Of a stretch of DNA of 64,000 nt, positions 7,661 to 35,870 are shown piece by piece. Source of the stretch: Candidatus Margulisiibacteriota bacterium (GTDB lineage: Bacteria > Margulisbacteria > WOR-1 > JAKLHX01). Where the stretch lies: contig JBAZKW010000003.1 of NCBI GenBank assembly GCA_041650595.1, positions 44,843 to 108,842 of the forward strand, in the 5' to 3' direction. The notes under the pieces are model-generated. The model saw only the letters and a list, made by a program, of their open reading frames with translations, was not told where the DNA came from and searched no databases. A program made the position numbers and the translations under genes. Within the stretch, counting starts at the first letter, position 1, and the number at the start of each line of letters is the position of its first letter.

Positions 7661-7731
7661 GCGGGATTAGTTGACCGGTTCAATGTCAGCTTCCCAAGCT
7701 GAAGAAATGGGTTCGACTCCCATATCCCGCT
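7661..7731 (+). tRNA. tRNA-Gly (CCC)
   Basis: Manual cloverleaf: acceptor GCGGGAT/ATCCCGC, anticodon arm TCAGC-TTCCCAA-GCTGA, T arm ATGGG-TTCGACT-CCCAT. No encoded CCA. Confidence 0.85.
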
Positions 7732-7743
7732 CGTTAGTATAGG

Positions 7744-7795
7744 ATGGATTGCGGGTTCAAACCTGCCTGCCGGCAGGCAGGTCCCATCGCCCGCT
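7744..7795 (+). pseudogene. Decayed tRNA 3' fragment (tRNA-Gly-like T arm and acceptor) with a 20-nt palindrome in the T-loop
   Basis: The sequence ...GCGGGTTCAAA[CCTGCCTGCCGGCAGGCAGG]TCCCATCGCCCGCT resembles the tRNA-Gly 3' end (GGGTTCGACTCCCATATCCCGCT). Confidence 0.5.
7762..7781. repeat. Palindrome family A (CCTGCCTGCCGGCAGGCAGG), copy 1
   Basis: Perfect 20-nt palindrome, identical to the copies at 28744 and 35549. Confidence 0.95.
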
Positions 7796-8035: not shown

Positions 8036-8089
8036 GTAAGGGAGTGGTCTGCAACCCCGACGAAGTCTGGGCGAATCTGGTCATCGCCT
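8036..8089 (+). pseudogene. Decayed tRNA-Cys-like fragment
   Basis: It shares GAGTGGTC and TGCAA with tRNA-Cys and has a degraded T arm and acceptor (GGGCGAATCTGGTCATCGCCT). It does not fold as a cloverleaf. Confidence 0.4.
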
Positions 8090-8092
8090 TAT

Positions 8093-8135
8093 TTGACAGG
8101 CAAGGGGTCACTGGTTCCAACCCAGTAATGTGTAC
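8093..8135 (+). pseudogene. Degenerate copy of the 3' half of tRNA-Val
   Basis: TTGACAGGCAAGGGGTCACTGGTTCcAACCCAGTAAtGtGtA matches 7833-7874 with 4 mismatches, running from the anticodon loop to the 3' end. Confidence 0.75.
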
Positions 8136-28395: not shown

Positions 28396-28418
28396 ATAAA
28401 TTTGCTATCGCAAATTTA

Positions 28419-28727
<309 letters not shown>

Positions 28728-28733
28728 CTCTGT

Positions 28734-28785
28734 CCCGACGAGCCCTGCCTGCCGGCAGGCAGGTACCAGGCTGCTCTACCCCGCG
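28734..28785 (-). pseudogene. Displaced 5' half of tRNA-fMet (nt 1-31) with palindrome A in the D-loop
   Basis: The minus strand reads CGCGGGGTAGAGCAGCCTGGTA[CCTGCCTGCCGGCAGGCAGG]GCTCGTCGGG. Outside the 20-nt insert (28744-28763) it is identical to the intact copy. Confidence 0.85.
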
Positions 28786-28897
28786 ATTATATTACTATTT
28801 TTGCATAGTTTGACGCTTAATTCAACTTTGGAAAAACATAAAAATCTGTAAAAAGTGAAATTTCTCAAAAATACACCCGATATAACTTTACAAAAGC

Positions 28898-35145: not shown

Positions 35146-35229
35146 TGCCGTTGGTCGGAGTCGAACCGACATGGGTTTGCACCCAAGGGATTTTAAGTCC
35201 CTCGTGTATACCAATTCCACCACAACGGC
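35146..35229 (-). tRNA. tRNA-Leu (UAA)
   Basis: The reverse complement reads GCCGTTGTGGTGGAATTGGTATACACGAGGGACTTAAAATCCCTTGGGTGCAAACCCATGTCGGTTCGACTCCGACCAACGGCA. It has a long variable arm and anticodon loop CTTAAAA. Confidence 0.9.
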
Positions 35230-35238
35230 GTTATGAAG

Positions 35239-35526
35239 CTATAAATTAACATCAATAGGAAATTCATGTTTGTTGACAAATTCCACTCTCTTCAACAATC
35301 TTTTAAGACCAGCCCTTCCACATCCGGATTTCATATATTTTTCCCGTTCGATGGCAGTAGATTCATTTTTCAAACATTCATAATATAGCATCTTAAAGGG
35401 CCTTCTGCGTCTGGTTGATTGTACTTTGCCGACATTGTGTTGATTGAATCGTCTCTTTAGATTGTTAGTATGACCAATATAAATATCCCCGTCTTTTTCA
35501 CTCTGAAGTACATATATGTAACACAT
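35239..35526 (-). CDS. GIY-YIG nuclease family protein (YhbQ/COG2827-like)
   Basis: MCYIYVLQSEKDGDIYIGHTNNLKRRFNQHNVG...AIEREKYMK. The stop lies 9 nt before tRNA-Leu position +1. Confidence 0.8.
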   Translation of the reverse strand: MCYIYVLQSEKDGDIYIGHTNNLKRRFNQHNVGKVQSTRRRRPFKMLYYECLKNESTAIEREKYMKSGCGRAGLKRLLKRVEFVNKHEFPIDVNL

Positions 35527-35531
35527 TAATT

Positions 35532-35585
35532 AGTCCCTCGTGTATACCCCTGCCTGCCGGCAGGCAGGAATTCCACCACAACGGC
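35532..35585 (-). pseudogene. Displaced 5' half of tRNA-Leu(UAA) (nt 1-33) with palindrome A in the D-loop
   Basis: The minus strand reads GCCGTTGTGGTGGAATT[CCTGCCTGCCGGCAGGCAGG]GGTATACACGAGGGACT. Outside the 20-nt insert (35549-35568) it is identical to the intact copy. Confidence 0.85.
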
Positions 35586-35591
35586 AAAAGA

Positions 35592-35870
35592 TCAGTCCTT
35601 TATTATTATCTTGTAGGCAAGTTCACTGTTCATAACATAGCCCAACCTGCGCCGGGCAACCATCTCTATATGGCTGTCTGTCTCAAGCTCTTTGAGCCTT
35701 GATAAAAGGATATTTTTTCTGGTCTGACCCGAAGCTATCTCTTTAATCAGCCTATTTTCCTGGTTTTTTAAAGAATCATACCTGTCAAGACCGTTCTTTA
35801 TGATGACAAGCGAAAGAGCGATCACAACTATAAGGAAAAAAAGATCGTACCGCACTTTTGAGCGTTTCAT
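35592..35870 (-). CDS. Septum formation initiator (FtsB/DivIC-like)
   Basis: 92 aa with an N-terminal TM helix, then a coiled coil and the conserved tail IEMVARRRLGYVMNSE. Confidence 0.6.
   Translation of the reverse strand: MKRSKVRYDLFFLIVVIALSLVIIKNGLDRYDSLKNQENRLIKEIASGQTRKNILLSRLKELETDSHIEMVARRRLGYVMNSELAYKIIIKD

Follow-up and report, generated by a model that had tools for sequence, protein, structure and literature searches.

Why does a perfect 20-nt palindrome interrupt the broken tRNA copies that lie beside small nuclease genes? The question is raised by CCTGCCTGCCGGCAGGCAGG at positions 28744..28763 of a 64,000-nt stretch of DNA from a Candidatus Margulisiibacteriota bacterium (the window), where an earlier note had read it as a precise insertion and a possible functional tag of the 5' leader of a GIY-YIG mRNA. 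Two cassettes in the window carry the palindrome. Both lie on the minus strand and share one order: an orphan tRNA 5' part (positions 1 to ~33), a GIY-YIG ORF and an intact tRNA gene. The features of the two cassettes, and of a third copy elsewhere in the window, are as follows (slashes within sequences mark insertion points).

28764..28786, minus strand: tRNA positions 1-22 of the orphan tRNA-fMet, ahead of the hairpin; no difference from the intact gene
28744..28763, no strand assigned: 20-nt perfect palindrome CCTGCCTGCCGGCAGGCAGG, inside the D-loop of the 5' orphan of tRNA-fMet
28734..28743, minus strand: orphan tRNA-fMet after the hairpin, GCTCGTCGGG; homology runs into the anticodon stem/loop and stops 6 nt short of the ATG
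28470..28727, minus strand: GIY-YIG ORF (SLX1/UPF0213-like), 85 aa, single-domain; stop codon within the 5' end of the intact tRNA
28418..28493, minus strand: intact tRNA-Met(cat)
35605..35632, minus strand: promoter-like site TGAACA-16-GATAAT, ~14 nt upstream of the Leu orphan, a consensus match only
35569..35585, minus strand: orphan tRNA-Leu before the hairpin, positions 1-17
35549..35568, no strand assigned: second copy of CCTGCCTGCCGGCAGGCAGG, inside the D-loop of the 5' orphan of tRNA-Leu(taa), at GGAATT/GGTATAC
35532..35548, minus strand: orphan tRNA-Leu after the hairpin, GGTATACACGAGGGACT; homology runs into the anticodon loop and stops 5 nt short of the ATG
35239..35526, minus strand: GIY-YIG ORF, 95 aa, single-domain; closest solved structures UPF0213 1zg2 and 1ywl, then SLX1
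35146..35229, minus strand: intact tRNA-Leu(taa)
7762..7781, no strand assigned: third copy of CCTGCCTGCCGGCAGGCAGG, which splits a T-loop-like stretch of a decayed 3' tRNA fragment
7750..7795, plus strand: fragment resembling a T-arm and acceptor 3' strand, TGCGGGTTCAAA/TCCCATCGCCCGCT, between tRNA-Gly(ccc) and tRNA-Val(gac)

Excision of exactly 20 nt restores the tRNA sequence in both cassettes. When aligned to its adjacent intact gene, the tRNA-Met orphan is identical at 33/33 positions apart from one 20-nt insertion (...CCTGGTA/GCTC), which falls where the loop meets the 3' side of the D-stem; the tRNA-Leu(taa) orphan is identical at 34/34 positions, again with one 20-nt insertion (GGAATT/GGTATAC). 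The boundaries are unambiguous, and the alignments show no target-site duplication at either site. The earlier note's description of clean insertions without duplication, at GGTA/GCTC in fMet and before GGTA in Leu, is thus confirmed. It had also stated that the hairpin lacks a U-tract and is not an intrinsic terminator, and here too the data agree: on the transcribed strand, the hairpin is followed by GCTCGTCGGG (Met) and GGTATACACG (Leu), no T-run follows any of the three window copies, and a terminator scan calls none of them. A terminator function is therefore rejected. The 20-mer forms an RNA hairpin with a computed energy of -13.9 kcal/mol. Among Rfam covariance models run on the window, the gathering score was reached by five tRNAs only, and the hairpin had no match.

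The window holds three matches to the 20-mer when up to three mismatches are allowed, versus none in 100 dinucleotide-preserving shuffles. The copy at 7762-7781, a site absent from the list made by the author of the earlier note, breaks a T-arm-like sequence (GGGTTCAAA/TCCCATCGCCCGCT) that matches the 3' end of the tRNA-Gly gene at 7661-7732 in 19/23 positions (counted by eye). It has no GIY-YIG ORF nearby, and its tie to a tRNA T-arm is one of sequence resemblance only.

The two cassette ORFs match Pfam PF01541 with E values of 5e-17 and 6e-19. Their products consist of a GIY-YIG domain only, of 85-95 aa in the window, with no separate DNA-binding domain. They are nearest to UPF0213 and to SLX1, whose family consists of structure-specific nucleases; with the model for group I intron endonucleases, the window proteins reached 21 bits against a cut-off of 56. 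The Leu orphan, hairpin, GIY-YIG gene and tRNA-Leu probably form one transcript from the promoter-like site at 35605..35632, since the sole promoter-like site precedes the orphan. The fMet cassette has its own promoter-like site just upstream of the intact tRNA.

We compared these cassettes with 80 GIY-YIG loci from metagenomes that had been picked by protein similarity alone, using a search profile built from a 3-sequence alignment; 79 had enough upstream sequence. In 51/79 loci an intact tRNA on the same strand starts no more than 40 nt from the ORF stop, as it does in both window cassettes. In the window and across ~55 independent cassettes, the first base of the orphan is tRNA +1 and its identity with the neighboring tRNA is 97-98%. 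We read the cassettes as small selfish genes of ~250 nt, each placed directly before an intact tRNA gene (or, in the mirror form, behind it) and leaving a partial dead tRNA copy on its other side. The cassette GIY-YIG clades track tRNA type. The same palindrome accompanies many of these clades, so there is no clear covariation of protein and hairpin. Look-ups by exact protein for empty sites among strains yielded nothing beyond same-sample contigs that break at the repeats, and sequenced phage genomes gave just one weak protein match.

The hairpin is a regular companion of these cassettes. The exact 20-mer lies within 120 nt upstream of the gene in 30/79 GIY-YIG loci, and a variant with up to three changes does so in 45/79; the remainder of the same loci gave 9 hits in 139 kb, so that the upstream density is ~70 times higher. 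By a strict test, 42 of the 51 standard cassettes have a GC-rich hairpin upstream, compared with 20 of 560 control windows. When imperfect hairpins are counted, the figure rises to ~48/51, and ~94% of orphan tRNA copies carry a GC-rich hairpin, a near-universal presence. The link to GIY-YIG/tRNA cassettes proposed in the earlier note is therefore real and general. Its specificity did not hold up, as only ~11% of 170 exact copies of the 20-mer touch tRNA-like DNA.

The insertions show clear target preferences. Insert length peaks sharply, at 20 nt in 36/72 cases and 19 nt in 9/72, and the 5' flank on the tRNA strand is an A in 30 of 39 non-redundant events. Insertion positions cluster at 12, 14-17, 20-23 and 32-33, which correspond to the D-loop and anticodon loop, and bases 1-7 of the acceptor strand are never disrupted. 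Three mirror-image cassettes (L192, L202 and L211) have the hairpin in a 3' orphan, downstream of the ORF, and in tandem arrays every orphan has one. The hairpin thus follows the orphan and not the leader, and the proposal that it tags an mRNA leader is not supported.

Several loci depart from the standard arrangement. Multiple and nested insertions, including a palindrome inside its own center, occur in L018, L042 and L203. One cassette (L060) lies within an hsdS-like ORF, with no tRNA, repeat or orphan, and has the palindrome 21 nt upstream. Four orphans (L001, L004, L015 and L030) have a hairpin and no ORF, and dead tRNA fragments free of a hairpin occur in hairpin-bearing genomes (window positions 8093-8128; L029). 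Point variants of the hairpin pass down along cassette lineages.

Some simpler regularities were tried and dropped. An in-frame PACRQAG peptide, seen in the first nine cassettes with spacings of 16, 19 or 22 nt, proved to be a small-sample coincidence: over ~55 cassettes the distance from hairpin to ATG is 11-43 nt, in all three frames. Nor is there a fixed ruler from the ATG or from the junction; the hairpin-to-junction distance of 6-28 nt is largely what short orphans and the loop preference would produce, and so indicates no fixed spacing. A donor-derived segment between hairpin and ORF was rejected because mismatches to the local tRNA (2.2% before and 3.6% after the hairpin) show no clear asymmetry, and a snap-back origin from an ORF half-site failed with that half-site missing in 88/90 ORFs.

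Searches by sequence alone traced the palindrome well beyond the cassettes. The identical 20-mer was found in 120 species-level genomes, which belong to about a dozen phyla, and also in 35 viral contigs. Its carriers include seven cultured Bacteroidota isolates, candidate-phyla-radiation bacteria, Omnitrophota, Planctomycetota and metagenome-assembled genomes labelled Proteobacteria. Winogradskyella echinorum KCTC 22026, Flagellimonas yonaguniensis, Longitalea luteola, Flavivirga and Aquiflexum lacus are cultured carriers. This identity across phyla and viruses goes beyond vertical descent or chance, so something must copy the 20-mer and carry it across phyla. Around the canonical sequence CCTGCCTGCCGGCAGGCAGG are relatives with a 6-bp stem, a 3-4-nt loop, the second 6-nt arm of the stem and a CAGG or CAAG tail; in asymmetric relatives the CAGG tail is on the same side. 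Many cassettes have other hairpin types (TCCGCC...GGCGGACAGG, CCCGCC... and ATCGAGCTCAGCTCGAT).

Among the 170 exact copies, a GIY-YIG ORF lies within 150 nt of ~7%, and ~90% are solos: intergenic, away from tRNA and GIY-YIG genes, with no GIY-YIG ORF within several kb. Copies fall inside long ORFs in 16% of cases versus 73% of random positions. One viral contig has six copies in 29.5 kb, with no GIY-YIG gene detectable in the ~28 kb retrieved. Solos occupy hairpin loops with stems of at least 5 bp in 29% of cases versus 18%; loop targeting was dropped as a general rule for solos, this enrichment being just ~2-fold. Lengths resembling target-site duplications at solos were near those of the control, except at four sites in tandem repeats. 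The earlier note had named abundance of the 20-mer without association to tRNA fragments or GIY-YIG genes as a refutation of its reading; this is half borne out, with solo copies abundant and yet a ~70-fold association. In our reading, the 20-mer belongs to a widespread family of ~20-nt GC-rich hairpin insertions that behaves as miniature mobile DNA.

How is this DNA moved, and why is it so regularly present in orphans? The explanation we favor, and hold tentatively, is a miniature mobile hairpin coupled to tRNA-targeting SLX1/UPF0213-like GIY-YIG cassettes, pasted at nuclease breaks and kept for disabling the orphan. We infer that the GIY-YIG protein supplies the breaks or mobilizes the hairpin; the route of copying and ligation and the selective benefit are likewise proposals. 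The SLX1/UPF0213-type nuclease would cut close to its own gene, in the exposed loops of the orphan tRNA and usually 3' of an A, and a hairpin copy would be pasted into the break without target duplication. The insertion would be kept because it permanently disables the orphan: it would split a direct repeat of 26-50 bp through which recombination or slippage could otherwise remove the cassette, and it may also destroy a residual nuclease target. Moving cassettes, which could pass between phyla because their tRNA targets are conserved, would bring the hairpin along and seed new genomes, from which solos would spread into intergenic DNA. GIY-YIG nucleases are hydrolytic and are not known to transfer strands or to ligate, which means that the model needs a ligase or repair step. 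In many cassettes the longest repeat that the insertion leaves uninterrupted still measures 22-32 nt, and the protection from deletion is therefore not obviously complete. Counted against the coupling are the share of solos (~90%), the viral contig free of GIY-YIG, the lack of covariation, the weak loop enrichment and the dead tRNAs without a hairpin.

A less likely possibility is that the hairpin is an independent mobile element resembling REPs, moved by another enzyme (for example of IS200/IS605 or RAYT type), with orphans as its commonest neutral sink. It would prefer the exposed loops of highly transcribed, hairpin-forming DNA, tRNA genes among them; insertions in functional tRNAs would be purged, and dead copies would keep theirs. 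This is close to the earlier note's suggestion of an unrelated REP-like hairpin surviving in dead tRNA pieces, which came nearest to the data of its three hypotheses. Most copies are intergenic solos depleted from long ORFs; the lack of duplication, the A flank (30/39) and the one-sided CAGG tail are hallmarks of single-strand "peel-and-paste"; and a hairpin with a tetranucleotide tail has the architecture of REPs. The same hairpin beside many GIY-YIG clades, its presence in orphans that lack an ORF and its copies on viral contigs without GIY-YIG also fit. However, the word "unrelated" fits poorly, because young orphans (97-98% identical) are near-universally occupied and because the L060 copy, in a protein-coding gene rather than a dead tRNA, has no orphan at all. 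Occupancy of ~94% of such orphans would need an extreme insertion rate or selection, while other dead tRNA fragments in the same genomes lack the hairpin. In addition, all-against-all clustering of ORFs from 120 loci of up to 8 kb identified GIY-YIG as the only recurrent mobile-type neighbor of exact copies; no transposase-like, TnpA-like or RAYT (Y1 HUH) family recurred in these loci.

It is improbable that the hairpin acts at the RNA level, either by stopping the orphan from mispairing with the tRNA or as a processing or stabilizing stem-loop that tunes a toxic nuclease expressed from a tRNA promoter. The standard architecture, with the hairpin 11-43 nt before the start codon, would suit such a role, as would the probable single transcript of the Leu cassette and the stable stem without a U-tract, through which transcription would continue. 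Against it stand the mirror-image cassettes with the hairpin downstream of the ORF, the variable distance to the ATG without a reading-frame constraint, the many solo copies and the promoter-like site just upstream of the intact tRNA in the fMet cassette. The mispairing version, which the earlier note had raised, is weakened further: bases 1-7, the part that would mispair, are left free, and mirror-image orphans carry the hairpin too.

We give an equally low likelihood to a protein-binding site, akin to the nuclease or regulator site of the earlier note, in which a GIY-YIG dimer would recognize the palindrome as an operator or recognition site for autoregulation, loading or immunity, hence its conservation. 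A perfect dyad conserved base for base across phyla beside a nuclease gene would be expected of such a site, and domain-only GIY-YIG restriction enzymes such as Eco29kI are dimers that recognize short GC palindromes. Yet the unrelated hairpin types listed above replace the palindrome in many cassettes, its position and distance to the ORF vary and may be downstream, nested and multiple insertions are hard to square with an operator, and the majority of copies lie far from GIY-YIG genes. An adapter or chimeric sequence from sequencing or assembly is hardly credible: identity over unrelated assemblies can resemble contamination, but many laboratories and pipelines have produced assemblies with the 20-mer, the seven cultured isolates have it, its tRNA-loop positions are reproducible and biologically meaningful, its point variants are inherited along cassette lineages, and it is strongly depleted from coding sequence.

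The hairpin coupled to GIY-YIG cassettes remains our preferred reading. We think it unlikely, though less so than an RNA-level or protein-binding role, that the mini GIY-YIG protein and the 20-nt hairpin are an undescribed two-component mobile system in which a structure-specific nuclease cuts the single-stranded loops of tRNA genes and other hairpins and a free hairpin is ligated in. If that were true, the nuclease's own cassette would be immunized or stabilized while the hairpin spread through the genome, and the pair would have crossed about a dozen bacterial phyla and their viruses by way of universal tRNA gene conservation. The pairing provides a concrete and testable role for the bacterial SLX1/UPF0213 family, which is large and of obscure function, and suggests a new self-stabilizing route for selfish genes, the disabling of a duplicated target copy. 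It also accounts for recurrent broken or mis-called tRNA genes and for contig breaks in metagenome assemblies, and a nuclease that really pasted a defined hairpin at structured sites could become a tool. A full-text literature search, the sequence itself included, found no description of the pairing of hairpin and GIY-YIG. A 2006 paper on GIY-YIG phylogenomics mentions that SLX1-like domains have recently and sporadically been inserted into other genes; it mentions no tRNA cassettes or hairpins.

Among known systems, the Seg proteins of phage T4 are free-standing GIY-YIG homing endonucleases, and SegB lies in a tRNA gene cluster (PMC2330249). Like them, the cassettes are small selfish GIY-YIG genes beside tRNA genes that leave the host function intact, and their clades follow the type of tRNA targeted, a pattern that homology-driven spread would be expected to give. 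They differ in that their 85-95-aa proteins lack a DNA-binding domain and are nearest to SLX1/UPF0213 rather than to I-TevI/Seg, and in that the cassette duplicates part of the tRNA. We know of no Seg system with a conserved hairpin in the duplicated piece. Integrative elements of tRNA genes also leave an intact tRNA and a partial duplicate; these, however, rely on tyrosine or serine integrases, supply a replacement for the 3' end, span kilobases and have att duplicates free of hairpins.

With respect to the hairpin itself, MITEs differ in their terminal inverted repeats and target-site duplications, since the insertions in tRNAs have no duplication. Yeast mitochondrial GC clusters and Rickettsia palindromic elements are likewise tiny GC-rich non-coding palindromes scattered in AT-rich genomes, sometimes within genes or structural RNAs; unlike the hairpin described here, they are 30-150 nt long, are confined to a single lineage and have no tie to nuclease cassettes or tRNA orphans, and the yeast clusters usually make short target duplications. 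The peel-and-paste elements of the IS200/IS605 group may be comparable in being defined by a hairpin, in leaving no target-site duplication and in inserting, on one strand, 3' of a short motif. The present case has one 20-nt hairpin, a motif of little more than A and no TnpA-like gene seen nearby. In the REP/REPIN-RAYT systems of Proteobacteria, short GC-rich palindromes with a conserved 4-nt tail are dispersed extragenically, a repeat flanks a protein-coding gene, and non-autonomous copies are presumed to be mobilized in trans, all of which parallels the present family. The hairpin here is only 20 nt, with a 3' tail of CAGG or CAAG (CCTG on the other strand) versus GTAG, and its neighbor is a GIY-YIG nuclease rather than a Y1 transposase. 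It occurs in three copies in 64 kb, compared with hundreds per genome, and prefers the loops of tRNA genes; and whereas REPs are lineage-specific, this hairpin is identical over about a dozen phyla and viruses.

The 20-nt GC-rich palindrome CCTGCCTGCCGGCAGGCAGG is present three times in the window, at 7762, 28744 and 35549; a search allowing up to three mismatches found no fourth copy there, and 100 dinucleotide-preserving shuffles contained none.

Palindrome copies in the window (position, arrangement, setting)
28744-28763, minus-strand arrangement: copy 1, in a partial 5' tRNA-Met copy, between GGTA and GCTC
35549, minus-strand arrangement: copy 2, in a partial 5' tRNA-Leu(taa) copy, between GGAATT and GGTATAC
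7762, between tRNA-Gly and tRNA-Val: copy 3, splitting a T-loop-like sequence, GGGTTCAAA from TCCCATCGCCCGCT, in a decayed tRNA 3' fragment

The copies at 28744 and 35549 share one order of elements, the standard cassette: a partial 5' tRNA copy (the orphan), an ORF of 85-95 aa, and an intact tRNA lying immediately past the ORF or overlapping its end. Both ORFs encode a GIY-YIG domain (PF01541; E 5e-17 and 6e-19), and the copy at 7762, absent from the earlier note, has no ORF nearby. Aligned with the intact genes, the tRNA-Met and tRNA-Leu(taa) orphans showed 33/33 and 34/34 identities, each broken by a single exact 20-nt insertion with unambiguous boundaries and zero target bases duplicated. 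These alignments bear out the earlier note, which had described the sequence at 28744-28763 as a precise insertion without target duplication, entering the fMet and Leu copies at different points. It had also reasoned that the hairpin, lacking a U-tract, is not an intrinsic terminator; no T-run follows either cassette copy, and a terminator scan called neither. The RNA form of the 20-mer makes a hairpin of -13.9 kcal/mol, its 8-bp stem capped by a CCGG loop; Rfam recognized the five tRNAs in the window and nothing else. Downstream of tRNA-Cys, ~210 nt past the intact tRNA-Val, lies a second, hairpin-free copy of the tRNA-Val(gac) 3' part (8085-8135; fragment 8093-8128, 97% identical, tRNA positions ~34-69), which could be an att-like duplicate or the remnant of a mirror-image cassette, the form with a 3' orphan.

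A survey of one genome per bacterial or archaeal species (596 Gb) returned the exact 20-mer in at least 120 stretches, no two of them from the same species-level genome; chance would give a random 20-mer ~0.5 matches.

The 120 listed genomes with the exact 20-mer, grouped by record title
Bacteroidota: 38
Patescibacteria/CPR: 36
Labelled Gammaproteobacteria/Pseudomonadota: 12
Omnitrophota: 10
Planctomycetota: 6
Delta-type (Bdellovibrionales, Thermodesulfobacteriota and similar): 6
Unclassified: 4
Thermodesulfovibrionales: 3
PVC group/Verrucomicrobia: 2
Elusimicrobia, Ignavibacteria, Chloroflexi: 1 each

Viral contigs supplied 35 further stretches with the exact 20-mer. The 29.5-kb viral contig IMGVR_UViG_3300037242_000417 (loci L141, L148 and L149) holds six copies, and no GIY-YIG ORF was detected in its retrieved parts; some of these copies occupy the loop of a CCCATCCTCG...CGAGGGTGGG hairpin as part of a larger repeated unit. 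On viral contig L145 (2239-2330), and also at L122, a full-length tRNA-Met carries the palindrome between anticodon stem and T-arm. ARAGORN reads the L145 gene as a tRNA of 92 nt in which the hairpin serves as a long variable arm, and because it adjoins phage structural genes it may be an attachment-site copy.

Flanking sequence differs between copies and shows no relation from site to site. Copies avoid coding sequence, with 16% inside ORFs of at least 120 aa versus 73% of random positions. Solo copies, those away from tRNA and GIY-YIG genes, tend to have A as their left-hand and T as their right-hand neighbour (33/124), and their location in hairpin loops exceeds local controls only ~2-fold; no true target duplication was found among them. 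Many solos lie in short degenerate tandem repeats with 7-8-nt units (L101, L082, L050, L058, L045, L080, L121/L150), which may be targets, footprints or coincidence; around four solos in such repeats, identical 7-mers on both sides resemble target duplications.

Sites were also healed, that is, compared with tRNA sequence after removal of the 20 nt in silico. Healed sites resembled tRNA in 18/170 cases versus 9/827 control positions, and 14 of the 18 matches continued unbroken over the junction. An HMM built from the window proteins placed a GIY-YIG ORF within 150 nt of ~11 genomic copies. All-against-all clustering of every ORF in the 120 listed loci identified the small GIY-YIG protein as the most widely shared neighbour and no recurrent transposase-like family near the copies. 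Most copies are therefore solos, yet the sole recurrent partner among the 120 listed loci is the GIY-YIG cassette.

The decisive test began from the protein. A search with a three-sequence GIY-YIG alignment gave at least 600 candidate stretches, 516 encoding relatives among the matches listed, and 80 metagenome loci were picked by protein similarity alone. A same-strand tRNA started within 40 nt of the ORF stop in 51/79 loci, the cassette tRNAs being of Leu, Arg, Lys, Asn, Gly, Gln, Glu and Met types. Within 120 nt 5' of the ORF, the exact palindrome was present in 30/79 loci and a variant with up to three substitutions in 45/79; since the rest of the same loci held 9 such matches in 139 kb, the enrichment is roughly 70-fold. 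A GC-rich perfect hairpin (stem at least 6 bp) lay upstream in 42/51 standard cassettes versus 20/560 control windows, and six of the nine cassettes failing this test had imperfect versions.

The orphans start at tRNA position +1, align with the intact gene at 97-98% identity, and are nearly all occupied by a hairpin despite being young. The insertions are clean and most often 20 nt (36/72) or 19 nt (9/72) long; 23 of the 72 are the canonical 20-mer. Insertion points cluster at tRNA positions 12, 14-17, 20-23 and 32-33, in the D-loop and anticodon loop, and the base 5' of the insertion, read on the tRNA strand, is A in 30/39 non-redundant events. In many cassettes the ORF brings no stop codon and ends in the 5' end of the intact tRNA (window 28470-28493; L166-L169, L178, L195), often at its D-loop TAG; the inserted DNA therefore comprises hardly anything beyond the ORF.

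The association between hairpin and cassette is real and general, and it is an attribute of the orphan copy, not of the mRNA leader. Mirror-image cassettes (L192, L202; nested palindrome in L211) run from an intact tRNA with terminator through the ORF to a 3' orphan, and the palindrome lies in that orphan, downstream of the ORF. Tandem arrays carry it in each orphan (L189, L215, L233), and hairpin-bearing orphans also stand immediately ahead of an intact tRNA with no intervening ORF (L001, L004, L015, L030). Thus, of the earlier suggestion that the palindrome tags the cassette leader, the cassette link is upheld and the leader role is not supported.

At L060 (3862-4178), a 277-nt GIY-YIG cassette lies within an hsdS-like ORF, with the palindrome 21 nt upstream of the cassette junction and neither tRNA nor duplicated segment at the locus. 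Cassette and palindrome together make 297 nt (99 codons), so the host frame continues uninterrupted across hairpin and nuclease domain and further on, which could reflect a compensating frameshift or a 1-in-3 coincidence. The ORF-less array at L029 (4640-5180) has four or five tRNA-Thr 3' fragments and the palindrome in one only, in its T-loop; hairpin-free dead tRNA fragments in hairpin-bearing genomes include three of four fragments compared in this array and window 8093-8128. Another ORF-less array (L118, 2500-2860) comprises three tRNA-Gly 5' copies in which GATCCGCCTGAGGCGGATG or a related hairpin stands in place of the anticodon arm.

Judged by consensus match, the sole promoter-like site of the Leu cassette precedes the orphan; transcription of tRNA-Leu therefore probably runs through the hairpin, in agreement with the hairpin not being a terminator. 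The corresponding match in the fMet cassette (GGGACA-17-TATAAT, 10/12; window 28504-28532, minus strand) is located in the 3' end of the GIY-YIG ORF and precedes the intact tRNA-Met by ~10 nt, and the cassette may supply a promoter for the displaced tRNA.

The cassette proteins are single-domain GIY-YIG proteins; their nearest solved structures are the bacterial UPF0213 proteins 1zg2 and 1ywl, then SLX1, and the window proteins score far under the cut-off of the group I intron endonuclease model. A 2006 phylogenomic survey (PMC1564403) described the members of this bacterial Slx1-like group as minimal, stand-alone domains whose role is unknown, with recent insertions into other genes seen occasionally. 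Cassette proteins cluster by tRNA type (Leu, Arg and Lys/Asn clades; Gly, Gln and Glu clades), and the two window proteins belong to different clusters. Such clustering would be expected from homology-driven spread within one tRNA family, which would not require long-sequence recognition by an 85-aa protein.

Related orphan hairpins have a 6-bp stem, 3-4-nt loop, 6-bp stem and CAGG/CAAG tail. TCCGCC-NNN-GGCGGA-CAGG occurs in orphans (L182, L183, L207, L231) with the tail facing the ORF in 4/4 cases, and the canonical palindrome fits the same scheme as CCTGCC-TGCC-GGCAGG-CAGG. The canonical form is common to most cassette-protein clades, and CCCGCC-type hairpins accompany the Gly, Gln and Glu clades; host lineage could explain this partial covariation just as well. 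A solo GC palindrome, TCCGCCAGCTGGCGGA, also recurs across genomes (L011, L015, L016, L032), which makes the canonical 20-mer one member of a wider hairpin family. The commonest variant affects one symmetric position of the palindrome, whichever way this faces the ORF (GGCAGG to GGTAGG in one orientation, CCTGCC to CCTACC in the other; L186, L187, L214 and L180 versus L194, L197, L169 and L189). It is a recurrent C-to-T change beside the central CCGG, perhaps at a deamination hotspot.

Hairpin insertion recurs independently at different positions, even inside one cassette clade. The palindrome has entered another copy of itself, at the centre or one base off (L018, L042, L203), degenerate copies (L021, L028, L125/L147), and the loops of other hairpins (L019, L067, L079, L091, L113). 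It occupies one tandem-repeat unit at L063, the remaining units being empty, and longer orphans often carry two hairpins; nested hairpins are also seen (L184, L203, L216, L244).

We tentatively prefer a reading in which the neighbouring structure-specific nuclease would break DNA near the gene that encodes it, and a copy of the hairpin would be pasted into the break. Once interrupted, the 26-50-bp direct repeat around the ~250-nt cassette would be unable to delete it, so the orphan would persist, and it may also cease to be a nuclease substrate. Transfer of cassettes between phyla via conserved tRNA sequence would bring the hairpin along and seed solos. Against this reading, the bulk of copies are distant from any GIY-YIG gene, uninterrupted repeat segments of 22-32 nt are often left in cassettes and GIY-YIG enzymes hydrolyse and are not known to ligate.

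We consider it possible, though we lean against it, that a separate single-strand element of REP-like or IS200/IS605-like kind simply builds up in orphans, which would be neutral sites for it. Such an element fits the missing target duplication, the strand asymmetry and the tail motif, but leaves unexplained the near-saturation of young orphans, the L060 case and the lack of a recurrent transposase in the 120 listed loci. Action of the hairpin in the RNA leader is improbable, being contradicted by the mirror-image cassettes and by an acceptor strand left free. An operator for the nuclease is just as improbable, given the interchangeable hairpin sequences, their variable position and their nesting. 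An artefact is extremely unlikely; seven of the 120 listed genomes are cultured Bacteroidota isolates, so metagenome binning does not account for the palindrome.

It is unexpected to find one 20-mer, the same at every base, in about a dozen phyla and linked with a nuclease family that is still uncharacterised; the finding can be tested directly. Neither the palindrome nor tRNA-duplicating mini GIY-YIG cassettes were found described in a full-text literature search that included the sequence, and as its coverage was incomplete an earlier description is possible. REP elements with their flanked RAYT gene are closest in working, but the hairpin lacks their defining GTAG motif and is not restricted to one lineage, and no Y1 transposase recurs in the 120 listed loci. 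Another resemblance is to two sets of very small GC palindromes lying in AT-rich DNA, the Rickettsia palindromic elements and the mobile GC clusters of yeast mitochondria. The host cassette resembles free-standing GIY-YIG homing endonuclease genes such as T4 segB in a phage tRNA cluster, although its protein is of the SLX1/UPF0213 branch and has no DNA-binding domain. That the pair forms a truly new mobility system of two components is unlikely, and we rate it as combining a mobile palindromic repeat with a homing-type cassette.
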